64,000 nt of DNA from a virus. Taxonomy: Duplodnaviria > Heunggongvirae > Uroviricota > Caudoviricetes. The DNA lies in the IMG/VR virus record IMGVR_UViG_3300028666_000024, positions 64,001-128,000 of that record; one strand, given 5' to 3'. Each line of letters starts with the position of its first letter. Position 1 is the first letter of the stretch. Under the pieces are notes generated by a model. It did not search any database. It was not told the origin of the DNA and saw nothing but the letters and a program-made list of their open reading frames with translations. Below are positions 40-20,013 of this stretch, in pieces. A program made the translations under genes and the position numbers.

Positions 40-975
40 TTATAATGCCAACTCTTTGAAGTCTTTTTCAGTAAGTTCTTGAGGAGACTTATCCAACCAC
101 ATCAATTGAGACATTTGAGATAATCCTCTTTTCTTATGTCCTGTGTGTATACCTATCAAATTATACATCATTCCATTTTCTTTAGCAACATCAAAACTTT
201 CAGGATGTTCAAATACCAATTTACCACCCGGACCATATTTTTTTGCAATATCTTTGTTAAATAGAAAGAGATAAATCCTACCCTCTTCATCATCACCCTT
301 TACTTTATATTTGTATCCATGACCTATTTCACATTCAAACTCATATGGTTTAGAATGTTTTCTATCAATTCTTCCAAAATCACTTACTAAGGTTTCATAA
401 TCTGCTTCATCAATATTAAAATAACCATACTTATCCTGAACCTCATCAACATTAAAATATTTCTTTTCCTGTGGTTGAGGTTGTGTTGCATTTTTAACTG
501 CTTGTTTCTGTGCTGTTCGTTCGGCTGTTCTTTGGTCAAAGTTTGTTTTCTTCACTCCTAAATGCTGTAATAGAGTATACATATTAATATGAGTTTTAGA
601 TTCAAAATCATTATCTGCTGCCATAAAGTAATAATTTCTATTTGCTTTAGAATCTAATAATTTAATCAAATGTAGTTTCCCACCACCAACAAATTCAACA
701 TCAACTATTTCTTCGGCCTTATCCCATCCATTATGAGTAATAAAAACATGAGCATTATCTTTAAATTGAGGTTCTTTATTATAAATAATATTTACAATCT
801 GAACTTTAAAATCTTCATTATTTTTATTTTTAAATATCATCCCATTTGGTTTATTTTTAATCTTTTTAAAATATTCCCAAACATATTTAAAAGTTTCTTG
901 TTCTATAGGCCAAACAGTTTTAAAATTTTTCGAAGATAATTCTTCTTGTAAAATATAAAAGTTTTTAAAATTCAT
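40..975 (-). CDS. Hypothetical protein with MNFKNFYILQEE N-terminal tag (putative internal head protein)
   Basis: 311-aa ORF; N-terminus shared with several other late ORFs; body not recognised. Confidence 0.6.
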   Translation of the reverse strand: MNFKNFYILQEELSSKNFKTVWPIEQETFKYVWEYFKKIKNKPNGMIFKNKNNEDFKVQIVNIIYNKEPQFKDNAHVFITHNGWDKAEEIVDVEFVGGGKLHLIKLLDSKANRNYYFMAADNDFESKTHINMYTLLQHLGVKKTNFDQRTAERTAQKQAVKNATQPQPQEKKYFNVDEVQDKYGYFNIDEADYETLVSDFGRIDRKHSKPYEFECEIGHGYKYKVKGDDEEGRIYLFLFNKDIAKKYGPGGKLVFEHPESFDVAKENGMMYNLIGIHTGHKKRGLSQMSQLMWLDKSPQELTEKDFKELAL

Positions 976-976
976 C

Positions 977-2299
977 TTATTTAACCTGTGTTTGATTTGT
1001 AGTATTTTGATTTATAGCATTTGATGTAATAACTTTAAATAATTCATCAATATTATCAATCAATTGTTTATTCATTTTAACTAATCTTCCATTAACCTCT
1101 ACACCATCACTAAATAATTTTAAATAATTATCCCAAACTGTTTTTCTAATATCTGGTTTAGTGTTTATCTTTTCATATAAAGAAATCATATTTTTATCTC
1201 GTAAATTTCCTCTAAACATATTCATAAAATTTGAATGATCTTTTGTAATTAAATTTCCAATAGATTGTGTTGAACGAGTTTTTTGCATAAGATATTTAAA
1301 AGTAATATATTCGTCTGCTACAAGTTCATAGTTTCTTCCGGGATTTTGACCTTGTGTGTTTTTATAAGCAGTTAGAAAATTAGCAGTATCCGATTCATCA
1401 AATTTAATAGAAACCTTACCTATAATTGATGTTCCATTATCAAATTTTTCTTTTACATAACCAAAAAAATCTTCATTACTAACTCCCATAGAATTTTTTA
1501 TATTTTCTGCGTTAGGTTCTATTCCCTTAGAAAGTAATTCTAAAAATTTTGTGTTAATTTCATCTAAAGAATGTCCATTCATTTCTTTTAAAACCGTATC
1601 AACAATCAAAGAATCTGCTCCCTCAACATCACCACCTTCTAAACGATTTTTCCACGAACAAAAAAGTGTTGCTGTTTTAATCCAATGACCTAATTGAGAA
1701 GCATCTTTCAAAGCATTACCTTCAAAATATTCCAAAGCTTCTTTAGGACCATTCATCTTTGGAATTCTTACTTTAGAAAATTGATAAGCATCATCAAGAG
1801 TTTTAAAAGAAACTGTTATCTTAGTTTTTGTTCCGTATACATCCTGATTTTTTTCAGCATTTCCCAAAACAGCACCAAATACCCTGACACAAATATCAAA
1901 TCCGGGAGAGTAGTATTTATCTACATGAAAACTATTGTTATCTATAGAGGTTGATTTCTCAAGTGCTTTAGTGCTAATCCACTGAGACATATAATCAGAA
2001 AACCCTTGTTTATCCTTTTTCATCGCTGCGTAAATTATTTTATCGTATGGATAAACTTTCTCTGCAAGTGCTACAAGATTATCAATTTTATTCTTAATCT
2101 GATCATAAACCCGTTTTGCATTCTTAATAAAAAAATCAAAAGGATTAATCATCTTCAAAACCCCTTTGATAGCCTTACCTGCAATACCAGAAACAAATGA
2201 GGTTGCTTTACCAGCCTGTTTAGCAATATAATCAACGCCGGAACCATTAAACTCCTGCAACATCTCTTGTTCTCTATAGTATTGTTTGAAATTAGTCAT
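977..2299 (-). CDS. Hypothetical late protein with MTNFKQYY..MLQE N-terminal tag
   Basis: 440-aa ORF directly downstream of late promoter at 2332-2339. Confidence 0.6.
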   Translation of the reverse strand: MTNFKQYYREQEMLQEFNGSGVDYIAKQAGKATSFVSGIAGKAIKGVLKMINPFDFFIKNAKRVYDQIKNKIDNLVALAEKVYPYDKIIYAAMKKDKQGFSDYMSQWISTKALEKSTSIDNNSFHVDKYYSPGFDICVRVFGAVLGNAEKNQDVYGTKTKITVSFKTLDDAYQFSKVRIPKMNGPKEALEYFEGNALKDASQLGHWIKTATLFCSWKNRLEGGDVEGADSLIVDTVLKEMNGHSLDEINTKFLELLSKGIEPNAENIKNSMGVSNEDFFGYVKEKFDNGTSIIGKVSIKFDESDTANFLTAYKNTQGQNPGRNYELVADEYITFKYLMQKTRSTQSIGNLITKDHSNFMNMFRGNLRDKNMISLYEKINTKPDIRKTVWDNYLKLFSDGVEVNGRLVKMNKQLIDNIDELFKVITSNAINQNTTNQTQVK

Positions 2300-2331
2300 A
2301 CTTTATTATCCTCTTATTCATCTTCAGAAAG

Positions 2332-2339
2332 TATTTATA
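2332..2339 (-). promoter_or_regulatory. T4-type late promoter TATAAATA
   Basis: Exact TATAAATA on minus strand, intergenic, about 33 nt upstream of the 2299 start. Confidence 0.8.
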
Positions 2340-2343
2340 AATC

Positions 2344-2994
2344 TTACGAATCAAACTTATCAAAGGTTTTTTCAATAAAAGAACTATGAAAAGTGATATC
2401 ATATCTCAATGTATCTTTCGAATCATAATCTAATTGAATAGGAGTTGAATCTACATAGAATGCATCTTTATATGAAACTCCTAAAACTCTATCTCCAAAA
2501 TCATCATATATATCCACGTTGATACTGCTTATTCTGTTTTGTGTCTGACTTGCATAGTTACCATTATAAAACGGGTTATCATTATCCATTATCAGTTCTT
2601 GTAGATTCTCTATGAGATATGCTATTGTACCTTGATCATCTTCCTCAAGTGTTATATTGATATTATATCCATTAAAATCCATCACAGGAACACCATATGC
2701 ATAGGGTCCAAGTTTTATCTGTTCTACTTTCCAACCATTATTCATAGGCAAAGTACATTTGATAATATGGTAGGGAAGAATTGTATTATTTACAGAATCA
2801 GGAAGACCTTCAAAACTCAAAAGATATGTCCAAGTCTTTTGAACTGTTTTAGAATTTCCAAAGAAACCTTTTAAATTACTATCAATAATTAAAGAGTTTG
2901 GTAAGTTTCTTTGTGATTTTCCTCCACCTACTTTACCCACAATACCATTAACCTTTGATTTTACAAAATTCTTTGTTGTATTAAATAGACTCAT
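2344..2994 (-). CDS. Tail-tube-fold protein (gp19/gp48/gp54 family; likely baseplate-tube initiator)
   Basis: Tube-fold pattern: CTLP.., NITLEEDDQG, VDIYDDFG..V..YKDAF, LDYD...YDITF. Confidence 0.6.
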   Translation of the reverse strand: MSLFNTTKNFVKSKVNGIVGKVGGGKSQRNLPNSLIIDSNLKGFFGNSKTVQKTWTYLLSFEGLPDSVNNTILPYHIIKCTLPMNNGWKVEQIKLGPYAYGVPVMDFNGYNINITLEEDDQGTIAYLIENLQELIMDNDNPFYNGNYASQTQNRISSINVDIYDDFGDRVLGVSYKDAFYVDSTPIQLDYDSKDTLRYDITFHSSFIEKTFDKFDS

Positions 2995-3643
2995 TTATTT
3001 TACCATGTTTCTTTAGTAATTTTCTTTGCTCTTCCATCGTGTGATATTTTCTAATCATTGTTGCATATTCTGGTTCTGAAATATCAATATCTACCTTCTT
3101 TGTTTTATATTTTGAAGGATTTTTTCCTAAATAATTCTTTGTATCATACATTCTCTTCTCATAGTCTATATACTTAATTGATGAAATGTTTATCGGAAGT
3201 TTGTTTATTACATAAATAAGTTTCTCTTTTATTTCATCATCAAGGCCTTCATAATAAAATGCTCCCTCGTCTTGTAAACTCTTAGGATACCTTGAATTCC
3301 ATTGTAAACTAACTTTGAAATATGGTTCTCCTAAACCCAACCTGTTTCCTTCTGCTGTTTTTAAAAAATTTCGAACTGAGTTATGAAATACTCCTCCGGG
3401 CCAAATCAACATATTAGGATCATCTGTTTGCATATCCATAGGAAACATTCTTACACCACCAAACCAATTATCTCCAAAATGAAATGTTGAATATTCACTC
3501 TTTGCAATTCTTATAAACTCATCTTCTGAAGGATTCAAAGCCATTGGAACATTTTCAAAATCTCCATAATCCCCATGTTGAAATATATTTGGAAAGTTTA
3601 CTCGAATCTCTTCCTGTAATTTATAAAAGTTTTTAAAATTCAT
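2981..3643 (-). CDS. Hypothetical protein with MNFKNFYKLQEE N-terminal tag
   Basis: 220-aa ORF; first 12 aa nearly identical to those of ORF 40..975. Confidence 0.6.
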   Translation of the reverse strand: MNFKNFYKLQEEIRVNFPNIFQHGDYGDFENVPMALNPSEDEFIRIAKSEYSTFHFGDNWFGGVRMFPMDMQTDDPNMLIWPGGVFHNSVRNFLKTAEGNRLGLGEPYFKVSLQWNSRYPKSLQDEGAFYYEGLDDEIKEKLIYVINKLPINISSIKYIDYEKRMYDTKNYLGKNPSKYKTKKVDIDISEPEYATMIRKYHTMEEQRKLLKKHGKINESI

Positions 3644-3682
3644 TATGAAACTTTCTGATATCTGTTGAATATTCTGGTTCTA

Positions 3683-4450
3683 TTACCACTTTATCTTTGT
3701 TGCTTTTTGTTCAATGAAACTTGCTCCTGCATTCACAACATTTGAAACCACTGTGTTAGCAAGATCTGTAAAAGTATTTGGAACCAATTCCCAAAAATCA
3801 TAACTAAATCCTATGTTATACTTTATCAAATCTCCACCATCAATATAACTCACACCAACTTCCTGAACCTCTTTCGGCCAACAATTATAAAATACTATTG
3901 ATTTATCTAACTGAATTCCATTATAGGCATACATCATAAGTGTAATACTTGTCATATACTGACTTTTATCGACAACAGAAGTCCCGGAGAATGCTGCTTG
4001 ATTTCTAAATTGTGAGTTTGAAATAATATTCATCCAATCATCCATAAACTTCTTGATTGTTTGTCTCTCAGTTTCTTCATATAAAATATTTAATACATTT
4101 GAGAATTCTGCTCTACCGGGAAGTTTTCTAGTTTGACCATAGAATGATGTTGATATATCACTCATAACTTTAGAAGGTATAGAAGCAGAACGACATTTAA
4201 TTATCAAATCCTCATCTATTAAAACCTTATCAGTATTACCTCCTAAAGTTTGTAAATTTAATCCTCCTAAATAATTTGAAGAATACTTTTGAACGTTCTT
4301 TATAAAATCGTTAGCAATAATAACTTCAAATGTCCAATTCCGTTGAGGATCAGCATAACGGACGGAAAGTCCTTGGCGACTCTCCAATGTTAAATTTTGA
4401 CCTACCAACCCCTTAACACTTGAAAAAGCACTATTGAAACTAAGCGGCAT
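3683..4450 (-). CDS. Tail tube family protein (gp19/gp54-like paralog)
   Basis: CRSASIPS, RKLPGRAEF, NILYEETE, FMDDW, FYNCWPKEV, YNIGFSYDFW: T4 gp19 family motifs. Confidence 0.75.
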   Translation of the reverse strand: MPLSFNSAFSSVKGLVGQNLTLESRQGLSVRYADPQRNWTFEVIIANDFIKNVQKYSSNYLGGLNLQTLGGNTDKVLIDEDLIIKCRSASIPSKVMSDISTSFYGQTRKLPGRAEFSNVLNILYEETERQTIKKFMDDWMNIISNSQFRNQAAFSGTSVVDKSQYMTSITLMMYAYNGIQLDKSIVFYNCWPKEVQEVGVSYIDGGDLIKYNIGFSYDFWELVPNTFTDLANTVVSNVVNAGASFIEQKATKIKW

Positions 4451-4507
4451 CTTGAAAATCCTTTTTAAAATCTTGTACTAAATCTTTAGAAGTAACACCT
4501 TTAGAAG

Positions 4508-4515
4508 TATTTATA
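4508..4515 (-). promoter_or_regulatory. T4-type late promoter TATAAATA
   Basis: Exact motif, intergenic, upstream of the 4450 start. Confidence 0.75.
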
Positions 4516-4720
4516 AAATTATTATATTGCCAATTCTTTGATAATTTTCCACCTCTAAATATAACAAAATCTCTAACAAGTTCTGTAGAAACCTGTCTGT
4601 TTTTCAAAATATATTTTCTCTAATTTTTTGAACTTATTCTTTGATTTTATCTTTTAAATTAATGCAATAATTACACATATTTACATCCTCCGTATGTTGC
4701 CGAGAGTTTAGATTCAAAGA

Positions 4721-4751: not shown

Positions 4752-4779
4752 CGGGGATCAGCCTATCTCTTATACTAAT

Positions 4780-5379
4780 TTATAATGTTACAATAGGGTC
4801 GCCGATATTATCAAGTAAATAAAACCAATCAAAGGCGAAGGTTGCATTATATTTAACACTATCATTTCCTCCTGTATAATCTAAATCTACTGCCGCAACA
4901 TTTTGAATAAAACAGTTCTTAAAAAGAATTATTTTCTTTTCAAAGGTTCCATCATATTTCTTTAATTGAAGAACTGCATCTGTTACATATCCTAGAGGAG
5001 TATTTCCGGGACGCTTACCAATCATGTTACTATATCCCTTAGTAATATCAAATATTGATTGAAGCCAATTATAAAAAATACGATATGCATTTTGATTCTC
5101 TGATTCCTCAAAGTTAATTGAAAACGTATTTGAAAATGTTGGTTTGCCCGGAAAAATCTGATGCATTCCACCAAAGAAGCTAGAAATCTGCTCTATTCCT
5201 CTCTCTGGAATCTGAATACTTCTTGCTCTAACTGTCAACTCCTCAACCAAATCAGTTGAGATAGTTTTATCTGCAATAAGATTTGCTACGTTTGGAAAAC
5301 TTATCTCAAACATAAACTGTCTCTGAATATCTTGCATTACAGAAGCAGCACGACCTTCTATTGTAAAATTATTTGTCAT
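4780..5379 (-). CDS. gp19: Tail tube protein
   Basis: RARSIQIPE, IFPGKPTF, INFEESE, FYNWL, FKNCFI.NV..VDLDY, FAFDWF; two genes downstream of the sheath gene. Confidence 0.85.
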   Translation of the reverse strand: MTNNFTIEGRAASVMQDIQRQFMFEISFPNVANLIADKTISTDLVEELTVRARSIQIPERGIEQISSFFGGMHQIFPGKPTFSNTFSINFEESENQNAYRIFYNWLQSIFDITKGYSNMIGKRPGNTPLGYVTDAVLQLKKYDGTFEKKIILFKNCFIQNVAAVDLDYTGGNDSVKYNATFAFDWFYLLDNIGDPIVTL

Positions 5380-5906: not shown

Positions 5907-5923
5907 TTTAATATTCCTTTTCG

Positions 5924-7786
5924 TTATACAAGTTCAACAATACTAACACCACTTTGTTCAATGATGGTTTTCAGGGTAATAAACTCAATAACCTTAGTTG
6001 GTTGAACATAGATATCTACCATCAACTGATTATTATTCACAACATCAGGAGTATTATTTGAGGCATCACAAACAACCTTATAACCTGTCAATCCTCCTCC
6101 AGCAGTAACATCACCAAGGAAACTTGACACCAAACTCGAAATTCTCTGTTGAGTTCTGGAAGTGTTAAGTTCAAACAAGAAATCCTGAAGCATCGGTTCA
6201 ATACTATTCTCAAGATAAATCAAAAGTCTTCGAACATTAATTCTATCAAGAGCGGTGGCCTTCAACTGAGCAGTCTTTTGACCCCACATAACAGAACCAA
6301 CTCCCGGAACAACAAGACTTGTGTTGATGTTTCTGTCATACAAATATCCAATATCTGCCTTATCAAGAGTAAACTTCTGAGCATAACTTGAAATAATACC
6401 GCGAGTAGTTCCAGCAGGAGCATCCCAAGTATTAGCAACATTATCTGTTCTTGCCATGATAGCAGCACCAAAAGCAGCCTTCGGCAACCACAACCATTTA
6501 CTATTGAAAGTATCTCTTACCTTATCAAAACCAGCATACAATGCCATATAGGAAGGATTAGTATAACCATATTGTTCATCCTGCCAAATTAATTGAGCAG
6601 TGTTGTGATTAGATTGATTTGTTCCTGTCTGTCCAGTTGCAATACAATCCATTCTCTTTGTTGCAATTCCACCAACCTGTTGTTTTACTTGAGTATTCCA
6701 ATCAGCATTGATAAGAATATTCACTCCCGGAAGTTTGGAACGACTTGCAAAAATATTCCAAGCGTTTGTAACGTCATTTCCCATACCAGTTCCGCTTGTA
6801 GACAAAGAACCACCACTAAGAGGAATCAAGTTGAATGCTCTTAGATTAGGAACAGAGTCAACAAGACCAGAGGTAGGACATGTATTTATAGCACCATTAT
6901 TCTTAATATAAATCCAATTTGAAACACCATTTATAACTGTTGTAATATTTAATTGATTTCCATTAACATCAAGTTGATCTCCAAGGGTTCCATAAAAGGT
7001 TTCAACTGGTTGTAAAAGACTTGTTAAATCTGTAGCACTGGTAGTTGCTGAAGTAGCTTGTAAACCAGAAATATTTGCTGAAATAGTTGACCAGTTCTGT
7101 GACTGTTGTTTTAGATAAACATCAATCCTCATAACCTTTGCTGCAATAGGAAGTGCTGAAGTAGCAAGAGTATATGCAGAAAGTGGAGCACCTGCTGAAA
7201 TAGTAGTATCATCATACTTATATAACCAATCAGAAGCACTTGTCGCTGTCTGAATAGAAACTGCAATATTATTTCCATCAAGTCCCGGATATAAAGCAGC
7301 AATACAAAAGTCACCCGGAGGAACTGCCGCGCTTGTCTCGATAGAAGAAATATTATCTGGAGTATCAAACTGTCCTCCTAAAATAAAAGGAGTTGATGGA
7401 ATTCCAGAAGTTGTACAAGCAGATAGTGTAGTAGCACTCAAGAAATCATATCCAGACATATTTACATATAATGCAGCATACTTGTCACTTGGATCACAGG
7501 CTCTTGCAACATAAAGATTATTTGACTCATTCAAAAACTGCAACGCTGCGTACATTCCATATCCATACTCAGGGACATCAGGATTACCAGAAGCACCACT
7601 TGTATAAACTGGATTTCCAAAAGTATTAACCAAATCTTGATCCGAAGTCACAAGAACTGGGCTATTAATCGGTCCTCGAATTGAACGAACAACTACTCCA
7701 CCAACGGATGTTCCGGCAGGTTGAAGTATATTTGATTGATCTATTTCTTGTCTCTGAACTCCGGGTGTTGACATTTTCTGTGCCAT
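5924..7786 (-). CDS. gp18: Tail sheath protein
   Basis: STPGVQRQEID N-terminus; W.APAG..RG; WGQKT....TALDRINVRRLLIYLE; DIYVQPTKVIEFI. Confidence 0.95.
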   Translation of the reverse strand: MAQKMSTPGVQRQEIDQSNILQPAGTSVGGVVVRSIRGPINSPVLVTSDQDLVNTFGNPVYTSGASGNPDVPEYGYGMYAALQFLNESNNLYVARACDPSDKYAALYVNMSGYDFLSATTLSACTTSGIPSTPFILGGQFDTPDNISSIETSAAVPPGDFCIAALYPGLDGNNIAVSIQTATSASDWLYKYDDTTISAGAPLSAYTLATSALPIAAKVMRIDVYLKQQSQNWSTISANISGLQATSATTSATDLTSLLQPVETFYGTLGDQLDVNGNQLNITTVINGVSNWIYIKNNGAINTCPTSGLVDSVPNLRAFNLIPLSGGSLSTSGTGMGNDVTNAWNIFASRSKLPGVNILINADWNTQVKQQVGGIATKRMDCIATGQTGTNQSNHNTAQLIWQDEQYGYTNPSYMALYAGFDKVRDTFNSKWLWLPKAAFGAAIMARTDNVANTWDAPAGTTRGIISSYAQKFTLDKADIGYLYDRNINTSLVVPGVGSVMWGQKTAQLKATALDRINVRRLLIYLENSIEPMLQDFLFELNTSRTQQRISSLVSSFLGDVTAGGGLTGYKVVCDASNNTPDVVNNNQLMVDIYVQPTKVIEFITLKTIIEQSGVSIVELV

Positions 7787-8173: not shown

Positions 8174-9757
8174 TTAATAGTCAAAGAAAACAGCATCATT
8201 ATAATTCTCGTCTTCTTCTTTATCTTTCTTTTCAATATTTTCATCAAACACAGAATCCTCATCAAAATCATCAAGATATTCATTTGTCTTAGTATAAAAT
8301 AATCCCCAATTGAGAGAAGTAACACAATCATCAAATGCATTCCTTTTTGATCCTTTTGCTGCGTATCTTCCTATTCCAACCTCCTCATACTGTGAAAGTT
8401 CTGTAATTGTGTCTTTATCATAAATCTTTAACCATCCCTTTTCGATATATCTCTTGAGGAGTGTGTTTGCTTCTGCCTTTGTCATTGGTCCCGAACGAAC
8501 TCCCAATCCTCCCTTGTTGTATCTTTTACCATCAATACCAATAGGTTGATAGGTAATGATTCCTTCCCACTCATATTCGATCCAAAGCATTGTCAAAACT
8601 ATTCCTCCAACATCTGCGTTATTTTCAATCATTGCAGGAGCCATATTATAAAAATTTGAAACATCTATAATAACCTTTGCAAAATCATAAGGAGATATTG
8701 TATTACTTCTGTATACTGCTACCTGTTCTATATCAAGACGACTTTTAATTTTTAGAACCTGAATCACTGAATAGTTTGACTCCTGTTTTCCACCACCTGC
8801 TGCAACATCAACACCAAGAACATACTTAGCATTATCTACAGGATTCTCCCAAATTTTCATCACACCATTCCACTTATAATCAATTGGAGGCATAAACTTC
8901 ATCTTTTCTAAAATATCTTGATCAACCATCGTGTTGTTTGCTCCAACAAAACGACAATCAAACTCCTGCATGAATTGAATTTCACCATATGGAAGAGATT
9001 TTATTGTTCTCTTCTTCCAATCTTCATCCCTTCCCGGAACTTCTGTCCAAAGAATCTTGATTGGATAATAATTATTTTCTCCTCGAACAGCATTAATCCA
9101 TAGATCATAAAACATTTCTTGTCCGTTTGGAGTTGAAAGTATAATAACCTTTGATTTCTTTCCTGAAGATATTGTAGGAATCACAGCACTCATAAAACTC
9201 TTCTGCATATTCTGATCCACGAAAGCAAACTCATCAAGTAACAATGTTGAGAATGATAAACCTCTGACCGCTGTTGAGGATGTTGAAAAGGCATATAATG
9301 AACTTCCATTTTCTAAAATAATATCTTTTTTGTTCCATTCAACTATTCCTTGTTGTAACCACATGGGAAGAGCTTCATAAGCACTTTTAATTTTGTCAAG
9401 AATTTCAACAGAAATCATTTCTTTATTTGCAAGAATTGCCGCTACATGATCTTTGTTGAATAAAATAGTATGAAGTAAATTTAGAGATATCATAGCTGTC
9501 TTACCAATCTGACGTGATGCTAATATGATAACATGTTGTTTGTCCTCCGGAGGTTCTTTACAAACCTTTAGAACTTTCTTTTGATAATCTCTTAAAGGTA
9601 TTAAAATCTTTCCATAATCAATTGTAATGATATAGAAATACTTCTCAGCGAAATAACAAATATCCTCGGCACACTTAACATACTCCTCAAGCATTTCTTT
9701 TGTATAAGTTACTTCCTGACCCTTACCCCTCAACTTCTTATTACCCATGAACGCCAT
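8174..9757 (-). CDS. gp17: Terminase large subunit
   Basis: SRQIGKT Walker A, LLLDEFAF Walker B, STPNG, FMQEFDC.F, GVDVA nuclease motif. Confidence 0.95.
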   Translation of the reverse strand: MAFMGNKKLRGKGQEVTYTKEMLEEYVKCAEDICYFAEKYFYIITIDYGKILIPLRDYQKKVLKVCKEPPEDKQHVIILASRQIGKTAMISLNLLHTILFNKDHVAAILANKEMISVEILDKIKSAYEALPMWLQQGIVEWNKKDIILENGSSLYAFSTSSTAVRGLSFSTLLLDEFAFVDQNMQKSFMSAVIPTISSGKKSKVIILSTPNGQEMFYDLWINAVRGENNYYPIKILWTEVPGRDEDWKKRTIKSLPYGEIQFMQEFDCRFVGANNTMVDQDILEKMKFMPPIDYKWNGVMKIWENPVDNAKYVLGVDVAAGGGKQESNYSVIQVLKIKSRLDIEQVAVYRSNTISPYDFAKVIIDVSNFYNMAPAMIENNADVGGIVLTMLWIEYEWEGIITYQPIGIDGKRYNKGGLGVRSGPMTKAEANTLLKRYIEKGWLKIYDKDTITELSQYEEVGIGRYAAKGSKRNAFDDCVTSLNWGLFYTKTNEYLDDFDEDSVFDENIEKKDKEEDENYNDAVFFDY

Positions 9758-9768: not shown

Positions 9769-11010
9769 TTAATTAAGAATTATATCCACTTCAACTTTAC
9801 ACTTACTTCTAATAATTTTTTTTATTTTATCTATGAGAATATTCTTTTTGAATATATTCATTCCATGTGGAAACAACCAATTATCTTGAGCAAAGAAATA
9901 TCTTCCAACATATTCTGGTAACTCTGATTCATCTGTAATTTCTTCGATTGAGTTGTGTGTGCAATCAAAATCTATTCCAACTTTTTTTGGACATCCTTTC
10001 AAATCTTTTAAAAGATTTCCACTACATCTGAAACTTCCTGCAACAGAGTGAGGACATCCTTCTAATGTTGTTAGTCCTAAATCTGCACAAGTAAAATTAC
10101 CATCAACCTTTTTAAATTTAATTATTAATTTTCCATCTCTTGCAAAATTTTCGTCTAGATAAACACTCTCTTTAGAATCATATGTTCCATCAGGATTCTT
10201 AGTAAATTTTTTAAACAATTTCTCAGTTATTTCTTCTTCACTCATAGGTTTAAATATTTCTGCTTCCTTTTTAAGTATTCCTAAGTAATTTAAAAGATTA
10301 TTTTTGATATATATAGGACTATCATCTGCAATTGAAAATTTATTTTTGAGATATATATTATTATCATTTGCATTAAACCATTCTATTATTTCATAATTTG
10401 GATAAATTGCTACTGCTATCTTTTGAAAATACTTCTTAACAGATTCACTACTTTTATCTTCATGTCTATCTGTAAAATTATTTTTTAAATCCTCAATATC
10501 CTTTATCATTATAAAATAAAATGCTACCCCTCGGTTTGTATATTCGTCAAAATAATTTGAACTCTTTGCGCTGATACACCACTTGGTATTTGCTCCATAT
10601 ATCTGTGCAGCTTCCTTTGTAAGAATTTTAAAAATTTGACACTTTTCATTTTCAAATACTTTTAAAGCACCTTTAGTCTTTAAAACACTTTGTACTTCAT
10701 TTTTAGAAGGAGGAAGACTATCTAAGGCCTTTTTCAATCCTCTTAGAAAATATTTATTAATATCTTTCTCTTTAAGTCTATTTAAATTCTTTTCAAATTT
10801 TTCTAATAATTCAACAACTTCGTCTGTATACTCAAAGGCTCTGTGCATAATATCTGTACTGTTCTTTATAAGAAACTTTACAAACTTTGATTTATTTTGA
10901 AGTCTGCTGTTAATATCTCTTATAGTTATTTTAGCAATATCAGTAAGATTACTCTTTTCAAGTTCATCTTCTATCTTAGATTCTATCAAATAAAAACTTT
11001 TAAAGTTCAA
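9769..11010 (-). CDS. Tagged hypothetical protein with WCI module and C-terminal LRR-like repeats
   Basis: MNFKSFYLIE start; YGANTKWCIS..YFDEY; G.F.C....L..L.GCP..V repeats. Confidence 0.6.
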   Translation of the reverse strand: MNFKSFYLIESKIEDELEKSNLTDIAKITIRDINSRLQNKSKFVKFLIKNSTDIMHRAFEYTDEVVELLEKFEKNLNRLKEKDINKYFLRGLKKALDSLPPSKNEVQSVLKTKGALKVFENEKCQIFKILTKEAAQIYGANTKWCISAKSSNYFDEYTNRGVAFYFIMIKDIEDLKNNFTDRHEDKSSESVKKYFQKIAVAIYPNYEIIEWFNANDNNIYLKNKFSIADDSPIYIKNNLLNYLGILKKEAEIFKPMSEEEITEKLFKKFTKNPDGTYDSKESVYLDENFARDGKLIIKFKKVDGNFTCADLGLTTLEGCPHSVAGSFRCSGNLLKDLKGCPKKVGIDFDCTHNSIEEITDESELPEYVGRYFFAQDNWLFPHGMNIFKKNILIDKIKKIIRSKCKVEVDIILN

Positions 11011-11836
11011 TTTTAAACTCCTTTTGAAATTCTTGCCAAACTAAATATAAACGACTTATCAACTTTTTTAAACCTTTTGAATTATTTTTTCTCAAATGTT
11101 CTTTATATTCAAACTTTAAAAAATGTTCTATAAAAATCTTTTGAAACGCTATAAAATTTGTTAAATACTTTTTTAATGCAATCTTGTTTTCTTTTTCACA
11201 ATTCAATAAAAATTCCTGTATTTGATATAAAGCTTGATTCCAATGAGAGTTTTTTTCTGTTCCTGAATCATAATATTTTTTTAGTCTTAGACTTTTATTC
11301 TGCAACTCTGTAGTAGTTATTTTTTTATTTTTAATAATAGAAAATTTAAATTTTATATCATCCAGATAATGATTAACTTCATGAGCTACTGTTCCCCATC
11401 CAATCCTAGTAATCTCATCCCATATCTTATAACCGTCCCATTCAACAAATGAGTTATTAAGAATATAAAACGTTATTTCATATTCTACACCGATAAAATT
11501 TTGAAGTAATGAAATAGGAATTTTATTTATTTGTTCTTTAATATTTGTATATGATGCTAATGCTCCTACTTCTCTACCATCTATTTCACTTTTAAATTTT
11601 AGAAATAATCCTTTATATTCAGGATCAAGTATTCCAACATCAATCTTATATGTATTAAAACAATCTCTATATACTCCACCATATGTGAAGAATAAATCCT
11701 CTTCAATAAGTTTTAAACTACCATTTTTATAAGAAGCAAAAGAAATCCACTTTCTAACCTTTTCAACAAAGATTTTAACTTCTTTTGCTCTTTCTAAATC
11801 TTCTCTTTCTAAGAAATAAAATTGTTTGAAATTCAT
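11000..11836 (-). CDS. Tagged hypothetical protein with HExxH zincin-like motif
   Basis: MNFKQFYFLE start; TVAHEVNHYLD. Confidence 0.55.
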   Translation of the reverse strand: MNFKQFYFLEREDLERAKEVKIFVEKVRKWISFASYKNGSLKLIEEDLFFTYGGVYRDCFNTYKIDVGILDPEYKGLFLKFKSEIDGREVGALASYTNIKEQINKIPISLLQNFIGVEYEITFYILNNSFVEWDGYKIWDEITRIGWGTVAHEVNHYLDDIKFKFSIIKNKKITTTELQNKSLRLKKYYDSGTEKNSHWNQALYQIQEFLLNCEKENKIALKKYLTNFIAFQKIFIEHFLKFEYKEHLRKNNSKGLKKLISRLYLVWQEFQKEFKIEL

Positions 11837-13282: not shown

Positions 13283-13873
13283 ATGCCTTATACCGTGACA
13301 TTTATCTGCACAGGAAACACTTGCAGAAGCGCTATGGGTGAAGCAATAACCAAATCACTACTGCTTCCATATAAGAATATCAAGGTTGATTCTTGTGGTA
13401 TTCAAACTACCACAGGAACCCCTGCCTCTGTTAATTCTAAAATTGTTAGCAAACAAAACGGTATTGATCTTAACAAACATCGTTCCCGGAAGATGACTTA
13501 CAAAATCCTTCAGAACTCAAACTTGATTCTTTGTATGGAAGATTTACATATGGATAGAATTATATCTCTCTATCCTGAATTCAAAGACAAAATCTTCAGA
13601 CTGAAAAGTTGGATGAAAGTTTCAAAACCTACTAACGGCAATAAAAAAATTCAACACCCTACAGTGAAAACAAATAAGTCTTTCGATTCATATTACGATA
13701 AAGATATATGGAACTCTTTTTTTGGTGATTATGATGAAGAAAATTATGCTGACAACATTCCAGATCCTTATGGCGGCAACCTCAAAGAATATGAGATGAC
13801 CTTCAAAGAGATATATCAGGAAGTAAAAAGAGTAGTTCCTTTTATCATTGCTGCTGCTAATAAAGGTTCTTAA
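13283..13873 (+). CDS. Low-molecular-weight phosphatase, YwlE-type (protein-arginine phosphatase-like)
   Basis: P-loop FICTGNTCRSAMGE and catalytic D-loop IPDPYGG; start taken at ATG 13283. Confidence 0.85.
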   Translation: MPYTVTFICTGNTCRSAMGEAITKSLLLPYKNIKVDSCGIQTTTGTPASVNSKIVSKQNGIDLNKHRSRKMTYKILQNSNLILCMEDLHMDRIISLYPEFKDKIFRLKSWMKVSKPTNGNKKIQHPTVKTNKSFDSYYDKDIWNSFFGDYDEENYADNIPDPYGGNLKEYEMTFKEIYQEVKRVVPFIIAAANKGS

Positions 13874-16800
13874 GAAATTCAACTTCAAAACCAATTGGAT
13901 AGTTTTGAATTGTAGCTATATCTCCATGTAGAGCCGTTATATCTCCTGTCTCTCCTATGAATGATGTTACTCCTTCAATATTTGGGCCAATAATTCTAAC
14001 ATTATCACCAATTTTAAAATTTTCTTTCTTCTTTTCCCCGGTTTTATTTTCAATTTTTTTAGAATCTTCCTCTTTAGAACTTCCTTCTTTGTTAATTAAT
14101 TTTAAACACTTATATGTATCAGAAAATATATTAAAACCATGATAAGGTTTTGTTATTGATGAATATTGATGAAATAATTTATTTTCATCGTCCCATTCAA
14201 TAGTCATATACATTTCCTGAATTTTCTTAACTGTTCCTTTCATTCCTATATTAAAAACTATACCACTTTCGATAAAATCTTTTATGACTTCTATTCTATC
14301 ACCAATTTTAAAATTTTCTTTCTTCTTTTCCCCGGTTTTATTTTCAATTTTTTTTTCAATTTTTTTAATCTTATCATATCCAATATATCCACTCATAGAA
14401 GATACCCAATCTACCCAACACACAGTAGAGTAGACGCTTATAATAACTCCGGTATCTCCTCTTTTTACACTTCCAATTGTTTTAATACATTCAACAAAAT
14501 CACCACTTTTAAACTTTCTTTCTTCCTTCTTTTCAACAGGAATATCTTCATCTTTGATTAATTCTAAACTTTTACCATAATAACTACCGTACTCATCAAA
14601 ATAATCATTTGTATCTAAACTACGTTTTAATTTATATAGACCAATAGTATATATTTTTCTGCCGACAGAGGTGGAAGGTATTGTTTGTATTTTCCCCCAT
14701 TTGCCGAGATAATCATCCTTCGTATTATAAATATTATTACCTATAATATTTACTTTATCACCAATTTTAAACTTCTCTTTTAATTTTAAAGAATCATCAA
14801 GTCTTAGAAATCCTAATCCGAAATATGGTGCTGATATTAGTGACATTTTTCTTAAATTTTTATCAGCAACATTAGCAACTTTCTTATTCCAACTAACAGT
14901 TATTAAATTTTTTGAACCAGTAGAGTCAGCGGTACGAACTATTCCAGTTTCACCTTTTTTATACACAAAACCATTCTTTATAAAATCTTTCATAACCTCT
15001 ATGGTGTCTCCAACCTCAATACCTATTGGAAATTTGTAAGATGAATCTATAGGTATACGTGTATCTTTTTTCTTTCCTTCCTGATTCTTTTCAACTTTTT
15101 TAACCTGAGTAGGATAAAATGTGGAAGTTTTTGTTTTTTCCTTATTCCACACTTCATAATTTGTAAATTTACCATTAGTGCTATAAACCTCTTTTACTTC
15201 ATATTCTTCGCCTACTTTATATGAGTTCCTAGTAGTGTGAAGAATTTTAACAGTATCCCCTGCCTTTATACCCTTTTCTAATTCATTTCCAATTACTTTT
15301 AAACTTTCCTTTGGAAATAATTTTAAAACTGCGCTCGTTAAAGTAACCTGATAAAGATTCTTATCCAGAAATATTAAACCTACTCTACCCTCACCACCAA
15401 TATATAAGGTATTATCTTTATCGTCAGGCCCTACAATTTGAACAAAATCACCAATTTTTATTTTTTTAGAATCTTCCTCTTCATCTTTGATTTTTTCTAT
15501 ACTGTTCTTTGGAAAAAGATAAGAATGAGGATTATCACCTACTACTACCCAATAAGTATCGGAATGAGGATAATCACTATAATTTTCAATTGTTCCTATC
15601 TCTCCTATTTTATCTATACCTGAAACAGTTTTTCCAATTATCTTAACTTTATCACCTATTTTAAAAGTTTTCGAATTCTCTTCAGAAGACTTTTTAACAA
15701 TTTTAAAATATTCAGGAGTTAAGAAATTTACACCAATAACAAAGTTTTTTGAACCATCAGTCCATACTTCTTTATCCCACTCAATCTCTATTCCTGAACC
15801 TTGATTACTACCCATATAAATAATTTTTGCTTGCTCACCTACACGAAAGGTTTTACTATCTTCTGTGAATTTTTTTACAACTTCAATTATATCACCTATT
15901 TTTAGGGTTATATCTCCAAACTTAAAACCATGCATATTTCCATCATAATCTTTCTTTTCTTCAAACGGTTTATCTGTCTTCTTAACATCATTAAAACCAT
16001 ACCAATTTTCAAGTTTATATGTATACATAATCTTATATGGTAATTTTCTATCTTGCATATCAACCTTAATAATTTTACAGATGTCTCCTTTATGTCCATC
16101 TTTTGTTGTTACAATTTCTACAACATCTCCAACCTTTAAAGCATTTGCAAAAACATTTGAAAATTTTCCCTTCTTAACAACTTGTAAATTTTCTTTTTTA
16201 AGAAGGACAGAAGATTTTTTATCTAAAGTGTAAATTTTAATAAATTCTTCATCAACATATTTAACCTCAGAAATAGAATCAACCATTTTTTGTGCTTCAT
16301 TATTAAGTTCTGGTGCTGACTTGATATAGACATAATCACCCTTCATAATCTCACCATCAAGATCTGCAAGAAGTTTATTTCGAAGATTTATCATACTCTT
16401 TAAAATAACAGGTTGTTCTTGAGTTTTATAAATTTTTAAAGCAGAGTCAAGAATTTTTTCTATTTTTATCTTTTTATTTTTATATAAACTTTCTATAGAT
16501 TTACAACACAACATTTGATGACCGTTAAAACTTTTTGTAGTTTTTATTAGTTTATCTAAATAATCTCCTTTTTTTGTTTTACCATTTTTAATAAAATATT
16601 TTACACAACTTATTATTATTTTTGTTTTATTTTTAACTTCTTTTGAATTTTCTGGATTATTTAACATATCTTCAGCAATATAAAGAAAAACTTTGTATGC
16701 ATTTATCTCTGTTAATGCGCTGAAAATAAACCATATTGAATCTGATTTACTAGCACAATTTTTTGCTAATGTTTCTAAATCAAGTGGTAATTTTGCACCA

Positions 16801-18125
16801 ATCCATGTAATTTGCCATTCTTTAGGAAAGTTGTTTATATAATTGATATTAGAATGATCTTCAGGATTTGGTTTAAATTTTCCTTTTAAAACCTTTGTTA
16901 CAAAATATTTAAAAAGTTTTAACTGATCTTCTGAAATTTGAAAATCAGCAACTGGTCTGCGTTCTCTTTCTGGTCTTGGTTCTTGATTGGTAATATAATC
17001 ATCATCGTCATTGTATTCTTCACTCGAACCTAATATATTTCTTGATGTTTCTCTTGGTATTAAATCTTTTCTCGTATCATAACTATCTCTTTGTGGAGGA
17101 AGATTATCGTTGTCAGGTATATCTTCAACCTTATCGGCAGAGTGACCAAACAAATCCTTATAAGCAGCATAGAAGGCCGGTTGAATTTGTGGAGAACACC
17201 ACGGAATTAACTTCTGATATGAAATTGGTTTTGTTTCATCTTTCTCATAAACAAATTCTGAGTTTCTGTGTTTATCATATGTCTTTATATATTCTCCTTC
17301 TGCATTTTTTAGAGGTATTTTATTACCATAAATATCTCTTTTATATGGATGTGAAATATCCGCTTTCAAATCTATAAGAGTGCTACTAACATGAACACCT
17401 CTCCATTTAGTTAATATAGATCCATTATTATGCTCAATATCAACAACATGGTCTATTGCTCCATATATTTCTCTACTCTTTTCATCTAATTCAAACTTCT
17501 TATAAGCAGACTCCATAGCCATCCAAGCATCAGCGATATCCTTCCACGCCTTACCACCATATGAATACTCCATAGCCGCGATATCCTTCCACGCCTTACC
17601 ACCATATGAAGAATGCCACATATTATATCTTTGTGAAAAAGCTACTTTACAAAAATATACAAAGTCTGAAGGATTAAACCCACTAATATGAGAAATTACC
17701 TTCCATCTTATTTCATATCTATTACCTTCTGCATTTAATCTTTGTAAACTATAACCATCTTCATCTGGATTTATAGCATTTGCAAGTTTTTCAAACATAT
17801 TTTTAAGATATTCATTTTTTTCTAAAAATTCTTCTTGTAAAGATGTATCATAAAATGCTTGAAAATGAACAATTTCACAAGCACATGCCCGGAGAACTGC
17901 TTCATTCAAAAATTTATAAAGACCTTTGATTATCTGTTTGTTTGCATATTCCAAAGAAAATCCCAATTCTTCATCCCTTAAATCTTTGAATGCATCTGCG
18001 TCTGTCTTGTGAACGGAGAACATTGCATAGAAGTCGGCAACAAGTTGGTTAGGATCTTTAGGAATTCTATAATCAAAATTAAATCCTTCTTTTAAAACAC
18101 TTTTATAAAAATCTGAAAATTTCAT
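13857..18125 (-). CDS. Giant tagged protein (about 1422 aa) with 11 KOW/SH3-like repeats in the C-terminal half
   Basis: Start MKFSDFY overlaps the gp15 stop (TAATG); repeated (F/I/L)K(I/V)GD.V.(I/V) units. Confidence 0.7.
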   Translation of the reverse strand: MKFSDFYKSVLKEGFNFDYRIPKDPNQLVADFYAMFSVHKTDADAFKDLRDEELGFSLEYANKQIIKGLYKFLNEAVLRACACEIVHFQAFYDTSLQEEFLEKNEYLKNMFEKLANAINPDEDGYSLQRLNAEGNRYEIRWKVISHISGFNPSDFVYFCKVAFSQRYNMWHSSYGGKAWKDIAAMEYSYGGKAWKDIADAWMAMESAYKKFELDEKSREIYGAIDHVVDIEHNNGSILTKWRGVHVSSTLIDLKADISHPYKRDIYGNKIPLKNAEGEYIKTYDKHRNSEFVYEKDETKPISYQKLIPWCSPQIQPAFYAAYKDLFGHSADKVEDIPDNDNLPPQRDSYDTRKDLIPRETSRNILGSSEEYNDDDDYITNQEPRPERERRPVADFQISEDQLKLFKYFVTKVLKGKFKPNPEDHSNINYINNFPKEWQITWIGAKLPLDLETLAKNCASKSDSIWFIFSALTEINAYKVFLYIAEDMLNNPENSKEVKNKTKIIISCVKYFIKNGKTKKGDYLDKLIKTTKSFNGHQMLCCKSIESLYKNKKIKIEKILDSALKIYKTQEQPVILKSMINLRNKLLADLDGEIMKGDYVYIKSAPELNNEAQKMVDSISEVKYVDEEFIKIYTLDKKSSVLLKKENLQVVKKGKFSNVFANALKVGDVVEIVTTKDGHKGDICKIIKVDMQDRKLPYKIMYTYKLENWYGFNDVKKTDKPFEEKKDYDGNMHGFKFGDITLKIGDIIEVVKKFTEDSKTFRVGEQAKIIYMGSNQGSGIEIEWDKEVWTDGSKNFVIGVNFLTPEYFKIVKKSSEENSKTFKIGDKVKIIGKTVSGIDKIGEIGTIENYSDYPHSDTYWVVVGDNPHSYLFPKNSIEKIKDEEEDSKKIKIGDFVQIVGPDDKDNTLYIGGEGRVGLIFLDKNLYQVTLTSAVLKLFPKESLKVIGNELEKGIKAGDTVKILHTTRNSYKVGEEYEVKEVYSTNGKFTNYEVWNKEKTKTSTFYPTQVKKVEKNQEGKKKDTRIPIDSSYKFPIGIEVGDTIEVMKDFIKNGFVYKKGETGIVRTADSTGSKNLITVSWNKKVANVADKNLRKMSLISAPYFGLGFLRLDDSLKLKEKFKIGDKVNIIGNNIYNTKDDYLGKWGKIQTIPSTSVGRKIYTIGLYKLKRSLDTNDYFDEYGSYYGKSLELIKDEDIPVEKKEERKFKSGDFVECIKTIGSVKRGDTGVIISVYSTVCWVDWVSSMSGYIGYDKIKKIEKKIENKTGEKKKENFKIGDRIEVIKDFIESGIVFNIGMKGTVKKIQEMYMTIEWDDENKLFHQYSSITKPYHGFNIFSDTYKCLKLINKEGSSKEEDSKKIENKTGEKKKENFKIGDNVRIIGPNIEGVTSFIGETGDITALHGDIATIQNYPIGFEVEFLKNLY
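14003..14354. repeat. 58-bp direct repeat (14003-14060 and 14297-14354), in frame
   Basis: Encodes KKIENKTGEKKKENFKIGD twice, 294 bp apart. Confidence 0.9.
17533..17610. repeat. 33-bp perfect direct repeat (17533-17565 and 17578-17610)
   Basis: Encodes SYGGKAWKDIA twice; 45-bp period keeps the frame. Confidence 0.9.
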
Positions 18126-18961
18126 TATGCTAAGTTCTCCCCTTGAAACCACTCGTAAGATAAATTACTATTTAGATTTGTTCCACTCAAATTAAAATCT
18201 CCCGGTGTCAAACTTCCAGATAAAGGAACATCATCAGATAAAAGAACACCAGATAATCCTATACTATCTATTTCTGAATTATTTATAAAATATCTCGTAT
18301 TGATTACTTGTATAATACTTGCTGGACTCCAAGGACGATACACAACAGCTTCAACAGTCAATGGTAAATCTAAATTAATTTGTCTGTAATCATTCTCACC
18401 GATATCTTCTGTAATCCTTGGACTGATACTATCAATATTTACCGGAAAAGTTCTTTCAATATTTAAAAAACTAAACTCCTTAACCCTCAACTGAAGTTTT
18501 GGATTGAAATAAGGAAGAATATTTTCCAACAATTGAAACATAGACTCATATGAATCTGTTCTGATATATAACATAAAATTCAAATTGTATGGAGCAGGTT
18601 GAATATCTTTCATAATTTCACCAACACTATTTCCATCTACTCCTACTGTATCAGTCAACCACTCTCTTGTAGCTTCGACAGATGTTGCTCGGTCAGGGGC
18701 ATATGTCACTCCCTGAAAACATAATGCCATTCTCGGAAGTTTGATATAGAATCTTTGACCGTGCTCCTGATTATTTTTGTCAAAGTAATGATTCTGAAGC
18801 AACCACTGATATTCTTTCTCAGGTTGGTTTGCCATGATAGGAACTTCAACTGGATTTCCAACAGGATTTCCAGTTTTATCATATGTCTTTACAATCAAAT
18901 TTTTAAAAGTGTTTAATAAAGATTCTGTAATATTATACATCGTTCTAGGGTAATAATACAT
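18125..18961 (-). CDS. gp15: Tail terminator / sheath stabiliser
   Basis: YYY..T..N....L..F..L.V, VEVPI, LPRMAL, PAPYNLNF.L, FQLLENILPYFNP pattern of T4 gp15. Confidence 0.8.
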   Translation of the reverse strand: MYYYPRTMYNITESLLNTFKNLIVKTYDKTGNPVGNPVEVPIMANQPEKEYQWLLQNHYFDKNNQEHGQRFYIKLPRMALCFQGVTYAPDRATSVEATREWLTDTVGVDGNSVGEIMKDIQPAPYNLNFMLYIRTDSYESMFQLLENILPYFNPKLQLRVKEFSFLNIERTFPVNIDSISPRITEDIGENDYRQINLDLPLTVEAVVYRPWSPASIIQVINTRYFINNSEIDSIGLSGVLLSDDVPLSGSLTPGDFNLSGTNLNSNLSYEWFQGENLA

Positions 18962-18974
18962 TAGTTCAACTCCG

Positions 18975-19466
18975 TTATGGTCTGTTCCTTAAAAAATCAA
19001 TAAGTTCTTCCATTTGATATTCAGTTTCAAACTCTTCTGAATCAAGAGTTTCATAATTCTTTGAAAGCCAATCAACTCTTACCTTAAATGCTCCTGTCTT
19101 TTCAACCTCATACTTCTGGTCATATGTAATAGGATTAACCAAAGATATAATTAAAAATTTACCTTGATCTACTGTTCGAGCTCTTATTGCTCCTGTCTCT
19201 CCCATAAATGCAACCATATATCCCGAACCACTTCCCGGATCGTTATAATAACCTTTTGGAACTTCATATTTAAAAACCCTACTAATAATTCTATGATCAT
19301 TATTAACCATTATACAAGTTCCATCAGAAAGAACATATTCAGCTAAATCAATTCCATCAACAACATCAAAAATTTCTTTTGCACGTTTTTCAAGTTGAAC
19401 CGGATAATCTTGATCAGTAACTTTTAAAACTTTTGAAGCTTCATTATAAAATTTTTGAAATCTCAT
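18975..19466 (-). CDS. Tagged hypothetical protein (MRFQKFYNE start)
   Basis: Likely start at ATG 19466, matching the shared N-terminal tag. Confidence 0.55.
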   Translation of the reverse strand: MRFQKFYNEASKVLKVTDQDYPVQLEKRAKEIFDVVDGIDLAEYVLSDGTCIMVNNDHRIISRVFKYEVPKGYYNDPGSGSGYMVAFMGETGAIRARTVDQGKFLIISLVNPITYDQKYEVEKTGAFKVRVDWLSKNYETLDSEEFETEYQMEELIDFLRNRP

Positions 19467-20013
19467 CTTCAGAATGTCCATTATATGTTAAAATTTTTTC
19501 TAACTGTTCTTTTGAATATCCTATCTTCATTAAATACTCAAGTGCTTCCTTCTTTGACATTCCACCCATAACACTTGCACCTACATCATTCATCTTAAGT
19601 GTCTTCAATGCAATCTGTTTCTTATGTTTGTCAAATATATCTACAGACTCTTTTATTCTATCAATGTTCTGTATTTCTTTTCCTGATATTTTCTTATTGT
19701 CTGCTCCTGCATATTTCTCTTCTTCTCTCTTCTCTTCCTTTTCAATTTCATAATATTTGTCTTGTTGTTCCAAATCGGCAAACTCAGTATAATATTTTGG
19801 ATGTTCTTTAAGATGTGCCTTTACAATCATATCAAAAAATGTATCTTCAGAGAATGGAAGTTGATAATCATTGTCTTCAGCCCAATTTTGAAGTTTAGTC
19901 CAAATATCCATATGCTCAGATTTTTCATCTTCAAGACCTAGAGATACTTCCCTTGGATCAAAATCTTCCTTATTACCGGCAGTATTTTCATCAATATACT
20001 GTGAAAATTTCAT
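19444..20013 (-). CDS. Tagged acidic protein with DUF5661-like module
   Basis: MKFSQYIDE start; EVSLGLEDEKSEH...KAHLKEHPKYYT resembles the phage G..VEMEH..HL.E.P.YY motif. Confidence 0.55.
   Translation of the reverse strand: MKFSQYIDENTAGNKEDFDPREVSLGLEDEKSEHMDIWTKLQNWAEDNDYQLPFSEDTFFDMIVKAHLKEHPKYYTEFADLEQQDKYYEIEKEEKREEEKYAGADNKKISGKEIQNIDRIKESVDIFDKHKKQIALKTLKMNDVGASVMGGMSKKEALEYLMKIGYSKEQLEKILTYNGHSEDEISKIL

Follow-up and report, generated by a model that had tools for sequence, protein, structure and literature searches.

Why do at least eight late proteins that are otherwise unrelated begin with nearly the same few residues? The question is raised by an uncultured soil phage, a distant relative of T4, whose sequence is IMG/VR record IMGVR_UViG_3300028666_000024 (169,231 bp with direct terminal repeats and a G+C content of approximately 30%). 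We analyzed a stretch of 64,000 nucleotides (nt) corresponding to bases 64001-128000 of this record, hereafter called the window, to which all coordinates refer unless they are given as genome or contig positions. The element in question is an N-terminal tag of 9-16 residues. The original prediction, made from the DNA sequence, had listed eight such N-termini on otherwise dissimilar proteins and had read them as T4-like capsid-targeting sequences that load diverse effectors into the phage head. All eight are present on the minus strand, each starting where it had been placed. Based on sequence data, it is rather probable that the shared N-terminus is a propeptide of the type of the T4 capsid-targeting sequence (CTS), which would serve both targeting and cleavage. 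The eight proteins, referred to as cargo A to H, range from 163 to 1422 amino acids (aa) with isoelectric points (pI) of 4.6-9.1:

40-975, minus strand: cargo A, 311 aa; tag MNFKNFYILQE (codons 943-975), putative cut after Glu11 (L-Q-E).
977-2299, minus strand: cargo B, 440 aa; tag MTNFKQYYREQEMLQE (2252-2299), putative cut after Glu16 (L-Q-E).
2981-3643, minus strand: cargo C, 220 aa; tag MNFKNFYKLQE (3611-3643).
9769-11010, minus strand: cargo D, 413 aa; tag MNFKSFYLIE (10981-11010), putative cut after Glu10 (L-I-E); directly upstream of the large terminase (TerL) gene.
11000-11836, minus strand: cargo E, 278 aa; tag MNFKQFYFLE (11807-11836).
13857-18125, minus strand: cargo F, 1422 aa; tag MKFSDFYKSVLKE (18087-18125), putative cut after Glu13 (L-K-E).
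18975-19466, minus strand: cargo G, 163 aa, acidic; tag MRFQKFYNE (19440-19466).
19444-20013, minus strand: cargo H, 189 aa, acidic; tag MKFSQYIDE (19987-20013), ending in I-D-E; octamer TATAAATA 26 nt upstream.

Cargo D starts with a TTG codon preceded by GGAG 8 nt upstream; its orthologue in a related contig (L008) has ATG and the same kind of tag. The ATG of cargo F lies 9 codons inside the longest open reading frame (ORF) and overlaps the stop codon of the preceding gp15-type gene as TAATG, and cargo F is translationally coupled to this gene. The start of cargo G is ambiguous, 19466 being the second ATG of an ORF that opens 5 codons earlier at 19481.

The original prediction had proposed a search for the motif across the genome, and we performed it on all 247 called proteins (51,889 residues) of the record. 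The core [NKRTG]F[KSQ]x[FY][YI] occurred 14 times, and 10 of these copies directly followed the initiator methionine. In 500 rounds of residue shuffling, 0.13 copies were expected within the first 12 residues (maximum 3) and 2.4 overall, corresponding to an approximately 80-fold enrichment at protein starts. When the first 16 residues were removed, the ten tagged proteins were mutually dissimilar in an all-against-all BLASTP comparison (best E = 0.04), and no Pfam, PHROG, or NCBIfam family was common to them, so that their description as otherwise dissimilar proteins was borne out. As a positive control, the same regular expression was applied to 44 kb of T4 (75 ORFs), where it picked IPI, IPII, and IPIII, which are internal proteins, and one other ORF. 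In the 41-kb structural region of phage Melnitz, which is among the nearest cultured relatives by TerL, none of 55 ORFs matched.

Within the tag, two aromatic residues (F/Y-x-x-F/Y) occur in every copy, in most of them at positions 3 and 6/7. Cargo B (MTNFKQYY) and a 109-aa protein encoded outside the window (MGKFSNFY) carry them at positions 4 and 7, which is the register of T4. The aromatics are usually followed by one more hydrophobic residue and then by [L/I]-x-Glu, with the glutamate at residue 9-16. Synonymous codons differ within the tag (AAT/AAC, TTT/TTC, TAT/TAC), indicating that conservation acts on the peptide; the genes of cargo A and C are an exception, being 91% identical over their first 35 nt. 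Further candidates are located elsewhere in the genome and are less secure than the eight:

Genome 132790-133602, plus strand: strict match, MNFKDYYCKE on a DUF3293 protein; TATAAATA 24 nt upstream.
Genome 145964-146293, plus strand: strict match, MGKFSNFYYFE on the 109-aa protein.
Genome 26048-26713, plus strand, and 36022-36612, minus strand: looser matches; TATAAATA 29-38 nt upstream.
Genome 146299-146604: a further candidate.

A motif [LI]-x-E ending at residues 8-17 is present in six of the eight tagged proteins compared to 27 of the 239 others (11%; Fisher p = 8.5e-5). The remaining two tags end in F-L-E and Y-N-E. According to PHROG profiles, the minus strand of the window encodes a complete T4-type late module, including a candidate protease and scaffold:

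28543-30330, minus strand: portal protein (gp20 type; phrog_213, E = 7.4e-100).
26731-27417, minus strand: gp21-type prohead protease, 228 aa (phrog_207, E = 4.9e-41).
24536-25327, minus strand: gp22-type scaffolding core protein, 263 aa (phrog_237, E = 3.9e-11).
23048-24448, minus strand: major capsid protein (MCP; gp23 type; phrog_138, E = 3.5e-72).
18125-18961, minus strand: gp15-type tail sheath stabiliser (PHROG profile).
8174-9757, minus strand: TerL (PHROG profile).
5924-7786, minus strand: tail sheath (PHROG profile).
4780-5379 and 3683-4450, minus strand: two tail-tube proteins (PHROG profiles).

The protease aligns with T4 gp21 across the GELxHP and GVSxR blocks, which we take to hold the catalytic His and Ser, and its N-terminus MGILLRE lies opposite the LIE-9 site of gp21. 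The protease of the relatives described below carries PF03420 (Peptidase_S77), and their scaffold carries PF25623 (T4_CASP). A maturation site is predicted in the MCP at LLRE/AAFGS (the slash marks the cut), with Glu56 (codon 24281-24283) at P1. In the alignment this site falls on FLTE/AEIGG of T4 gp23 and LLRE/ST of T4 gp24, and the MCPs of two relatives have TE/AS and AE/AS at the same column. Thus, the specificity of the protease seems conserved, and we presume that the gp21-type enzyme removes the tags and that the gp22-type scaffold serves as their docking matrix.

All eight tagged genes are co-oriented and interleaved with structural genes in late operons. Those of cargo C, B, and A are flanked by the second tube gene and the baseplate genes; located just upstream of TerL are D and E, and just upstream of the gp15-type gene, to which F is coupled, are G and H. 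The octamer TATAAATA occurs 26-40 nt upstream of B (40 nt) and H, as it does before many structural genes. Since it shows no genome-wide enrichment (62 copies found, 60 expected), it indicates late expression only where it lies 24-45 nt upstream of a start. Identity to cyanophage gp23 does not exceed 33% for the MCP (approximately 32% to T4-like cyanophages), and TerL is at most 40% identical to that of any of 50,697 phage records; judged by these sequences, the phage stands far from anything cultured.

Another recurring motif, of the approximate form K-x-Y-x-[IV]-A-[NGS]-[RK]-F-L-x-E-E, was noted in the same region. It is N-terminal in two small acidic proteins encoded between the portal and protease genes (28171-28506 and 27816-28178, both minus strand; MKNKIYQVANRFLIEE and MINKRYEAVNNLLSNLFEDD) and internal (ERYKIAGRFLMEDE) in a very acidic 448-aa ORF of no known family, which lies between the protease and scaffold genes (25385-26731, minus strand). 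The scaffold protein itself ends in this motif (YSMASRFLD at its C-terminus), and [FY]-L is likewise at the C-terminus of the scaffold in relatives. Small proteins of relatives, DUF5661 members included, carry it as well (L008:8466-8840, L012:7670-8044, and L137:1476-2146). The motif may represent a further docking or cleavage element of the head core. We know of no gene between the protease and scaffold positions in T4, and the 448-aa ORF probably encodes an additional prohead-core protein.

Other features surround the tagged genes upstream of gp15. A gene for a homing/HNH endonuclease of 537 aa (21331-22944, minus strand; phrog_3339, E = 3.7e-109) lies directly downstream of the MCP gene and separates it from a short plus-strand island and the genes of H and G. 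In relatives (L010:5695-8160 and L012:6884-8553), the position upstream of gp15 is occupied by a gp13 neck gene and a DUF5661 gene, instead of which this phage has the acidic tagged proteins H and G (18975-20013, minus strand). No gp13 or gp14 homologue was seen among the window genes profiled. The DUF5661 protein of L010 begins with MSFKKYLDE, resembling MKFSQYIDE of cargo H.

How well the tag is preserved could be followed in metagenomic relatives, which were reached via TerL and whose contigs were fetched (among them L008, L010, L011, L012, L136, and L137); a single-sequence TerL search for related loci had returned distant phages only. In orthologues from relatives with TerL 51-76% identical, the tag is 67-75% identical compared to 27-46% for the remainder of the protein. 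In the closest contig, L008 (TerL 76% identical), both genes upstream of TerL encode tagged orthologues of D and E:

Cargo D and L008:2367-3578 (MNFKNFYLTE): first 12 residues 67% identical, rest 46%.
Cargo E and L008:1616-2377 (MNFKEYYLLE): first 12 residues 75% identical, rest 29%.
Cargo B and its L011 orthologue: first 12 residues 75% identical, rest 27%.

Compared with their L008 counterparts, the TerS-like, 112-aa, and sheath proteins encoded nearby share 68-70% identity. The tag is thus held while the bodies drift below the level of their neighbours, indicating that the cargo bodies evolve fast, and purifying selection appears to act on the tag only. Two conserved genes that neighbour each other in this phage are separated in L008 by an extra tagged gene of 135 aa (MKFKEFYNLNE), and L012 (TerL 50% identical) carries MIKFSQYYLVE on a 131-aa protein upstream of the portal gene. 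When the motif was broadened, the relatives had 13 copies, 9 of them at a protein start.

A profile search with B among 1.84 billion representatives yielded twelve relatives that are 22-47% identical. The alignment of this 13-member family shows no variation at F4 and Y8 of the tag and at least 90% conservation at L14 and E16. An insert of up to approximately 19 residues separates the tag from the L-x-E/F-G junction in several members; this variable spacer indicates that the targeting part and the cut site are separable and separately conserved. Homologues of A in L011, L137, and L136 are 18-26% identical, with F3 and Y7 among only 8 invariant columns. Four phages with TerL approximately 50% identical share the syntenic pair of B and A, located between tail-tube and baseplate genes. 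The cargo is arranged in two layers: the clade-conserved pair B and A, and the more variable D, E, C, G, H, and F together with the extra gene of one relative.

Two further observations were made on the relatives. Contig L065, from the same metagenome as L012, encodes (1844-2479, plus strand) a homologue of an untagged 197-aa protein of this phage (41173-41766, minus strand), and the homologue bears an N-terminal extension starting with MNFKRFYLQEE. Comparison of the two sequences suggests that tags can be gained or lost on a given protein. The TerL gene of L008 (3588-6510) is interrupted, with an N-terminal piece of 120 aa preceding an 856-aa ORF that opens with a zinc-finger-like segment (MKNNFKCEICKRDF...) and continues as TerL, which suggests an inserted mobile endonuclease or an intein-like element.

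What the tagged proteins do was addressed by searches for family and fold. Neither Pfam nor PHROGs nor NCBIfam returned a usable family or an enzymatic domain for any of the eight; the only profile matches were short ones of F to PHROGs of unknown function. For F, a word-based search of 5.8 billion proteins found no homologue of comparable length (782-2489 aa) besides F itself, no match was obtained by sequence search in the PDB or in Pfam, and the ESM Atlas gave no usable match. Cargo B had no usable ESM Atlas match and no tblastn match in the 50,697 phage records. The AlphaFold 2 model of B, built from the 13-sequence alignment, is all-alpha (mean pLDDT 79.8) and confident over residues 46-430; residues 1-45 have pLDDT values below 50, with a helix over residues 5-16. 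In this model, the position of the tag fits a flexible propeptide outside the fold. Neither Foldseek searches of the PDB and the AFDB clusters nor VIA-align wide found a fold match to the model (best E = 0.76; best Z = 4.5). For A, a model built on four sequences was of low quality (pLDDT 46.9) and was not used for fold search. Past its tag, B is laid out as a Gly/Ala/Lys-rich amphipathic segment and then the all-alpha domain. The segment (residues 17-45, past the predicted cut; e.g. FNGSGVDYIAKQAGKATSFVSGIAGKAIKGVLK) is common to B and all 12 relatives and has a hydropathy under transmembrane level; it looks like a membrane-active peptide. With no function assignable to any of the eight, the original view of the cargo as diverse effectors is unsupported, and we give it clearly less weight than targeting plus cleavage. 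The T4-like capsid-targeting reading, in turn, was favoured by all sequence-level tests run (grammar of the tag, L/I-x-E, protease and scaffold, late operons, and invariant tag residues).

Two systems invite comparison. The internal proteins of T4 are small and basic, and their CTS was reportedly treated by Mullaney and Black in 1996. IPII and IPIII start with MKTYQEFIAE and IPI with MKTFKEFTSTTTPVSTITE (MKTFKEF...ITE) (NC_000866). Targeting by the CTS depends mainly on residues 4 and 7 (Tyr and Phe, both aromatic) and processing on residues 8 and 10 (Ile and Glu), gp21 cutting after L/I-x-E (PMC9026906). In T-even phages, gp21 removes the CTS from IPI, IPII, and IPIII (and Alt) (reviewed in PMC9026906 and PMC3012670). 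Our phage resembles this system in having a short N-terminal peptide on otherwise unrelated proteins, in which [L/I]-x-Glu comes after two aromatics three apart; in encoding a protease of the gp21 family together with a scaffold of the gp22 family; and in having a fast-evolving, phage-specific cargo. The x-F-K-x-[FY] core is shared literally between T4 IPI and cargo B (MKTFKEF and MTNFKQY), although 10 residues are too few for a homology statistic. The differences are that most tags here have one residue fewer before the first aromatic (MNFKxFY versus MKTYQEF), that the tagged genes are scattered in late structural operons and not confined to separate IP loci, that there are at least 8 and possibly 12 cargo proteins compared to 3-4 in T4, that these reach 1422 aa and are not uniformly basic, and that the spacer between targeting part and cut site is variable in the B family.

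In the giant phages phiKZ, 201phi2-1, and SPN3US, ejection or inner-body proteins carry propeptides (PMC5694885, PMC7411985). The likeness lies in many head-internal proteins cut after Glu by a gp21-related protease, in mature N-termini of which some are membrane-active, and in large proteins that are packaged and ejected. SPN3US gp47, for example, is an ejection protein in which a transmembrane segment comes after a propeptide (PMC5694885). That group lacks a confirmed gp22-type scaffold, whereas this phage is a 169-kb T4-type phage with canonical head genes. The giant-phage propeptides are protein-specific and approximately 80-130 aa long, most exceeding 100 residues (PMC5694885); the tags here, being 9-16 aa and common to several proteins, do not match that type. 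Nor do they match a Sec, Tat, or lipoprotein signal peptide, the tags being amphipathic with K/Q/E and having no hydrophobic stretch.

In an IMG/VR scan, the exact pattern MNFKxFYxLxE was found in only two contigs. The shorter MNFKxFY occurred in at least 119 stretches, mostly out of frame or by chance, and by coincidence it starts an integrase, a DnaB-like helicase, and a glucosaminidase. In T4-like contigs, a gene with this N-terminus is located directly after the MCP gene (L078), a few genes away from it (L031 and L110), or near gp44 (L063 and L023); these placements are suggestive only, and the N-termini are possibly coincidental. The tagged protein of L023 is a GNAT. In L063 (662-1330, minus strand) and L078 (877-1605, plus strand), MNFKQFY begins a T7 gp0.7-like protein kinase (phrog_15752, E = 2.7e-17), which may be a head-packaged host-takeover kinase.

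If the tag acts as a CTS-type propeptide, its succession of Met, one or two residues, aromatic, two residues, aromatic, and hydrophobic residue would dock nascent late proteins on the gp22-type core before the gp23-type shell closes during head assembly. The gp21-type protease would then cut after the Glu of [L/I]-x-E and free the mature proteins inside the head, where they would stay with the DNA and most likely exit through the tail at infection. Several points weigh against this picture. Packaging, cleavage, and injection are all deduced from the genome of an uncultured phage. So short a tag cannot prove homology with the T4 CTS, its register is one residue shorter in most copies, and two of the eight tags have no L or I at P3. 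The occurrence of MNFKxFY on clearly unrelated proteins means that the first seven residues alone are not diagnostic. The cargo, spanning 163-1422 aa and pI 4.6-9.1, departs from the small, basic internal proteins of T4, and the location of B and A between tail-tube and baseplate genes in four phages makes a tail-related role possible.

Among other explanations of the tag, one keeps targeting to the core and cleavage. Here the cargo would consist of assembly or core proteins, or of proteins of an ejection conduit, and not of an anti-host arsenal; it would either be degraded or build a passage. The absence of an enzymatic domain from all eight proteins in our searches and the syntenic B-A pair in four phages with TerL approximately 50% identical are in line with this, and the Gly/Ala/Lys-rich segment of B past the predicted cut recalls SPN3US gp47 (PMC5694885). 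Being a conserved syntenic unit, the pair could equally be an ejection or core component like gp47, a role that would fit it at least as well as that of a variable anti-host effector. However, the cargo bodies evolve much faster than the neighbouring structural genes and cargo content varies among close relatives, and the similarly tagged T7 gp0.7-like kinase and GNAT of other T4-like contigs fit effectors, the kinase being the only functional hint in that direction. We consider an assembly or ejection role for the cargo as a whole unlikely, with some chance left to it.

Docking on a different partner, such as a tail/baseplate assembly site, a chaperone, or a modifying enzyme, appears more doubtful still. 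Three tagged genes do lie between tube and baseplate genes and two next to gp15, but the near-invariant L-x-E at variable distance is a head protease motif and would have no role there. No candidate partner enzyme was noticed beside the tagged genes in the loci examined, and no processing of T4 tail proteins is known. That the similarity has no function at the protein level, reflecting an AT-rich translation-initiation region or a relic of recombination at the 5' end, is very improbable. In its favour are a G+C content of approximately 30% combined with AT-rich codons for N, F, K, and Y, the 91% identity of A and C over their first 35 nt, and chance occurrences of MNFKxFY in many viral contigs; yet synonymous codons vary in the tag, the aromatics are invariant and L-x-E nearly so in a B family that is only 22-47% identical, the motif is approximately 80-fold enriched at protein starts, and the positions of Glu and L/I are irrelevant to initiation.

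Thus, a propeptide combining targeting and cleavage remains the reading we prefer. Specialists would see no great surprise in it, its principle being known from T4 textbooks. What is new is the diverged tag of a T4-type clade that is distant and uncultured, with a cargo larger and more heterogeneous than that of T4, up to 1422 aa, and, as far as the sequences indicate, tagged genes inside structural operons and comparative evidence for separately conserved targeting and cleavage elements. A more far-reaching proposal, which we hold to be improbable at present, is that the aromatic-x-x-aromatic ... L-x-E code is ancestral to the whole T4 superfamily and no speciality of the T-even phages, so that what uncultured T4-like phages inject could be read from their sequence alone. 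In that case, the B-A pair would be an ejectosome-like entry device in a contractile-tail phage, the mature N-terminus of B forming a Gly/Lys-rich membrane-active helix; a 165-kDa protein of unknown fold would be injected; and marine relatives would package a T7 gp0.7-like kinase delivered before phage gene expression.

If the tag functions as proposed, eight to a dozen proteins, none of known fold or family, would be injected with the DNA of this phage. Such proteins would be the first to meet the host and would be prime candidates for anti-defence or host-takeover functions; T4 IPI acts against GmrSD. The finding would extend the experimentally mapped grammar of the CTS far beyond the T-even phages. 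With it, packaged proteins of metagenomic T4-like genomes could be predicted by a simple sequence rule, and there would be a second natural tag to try for loading proteins into engineered capsids.

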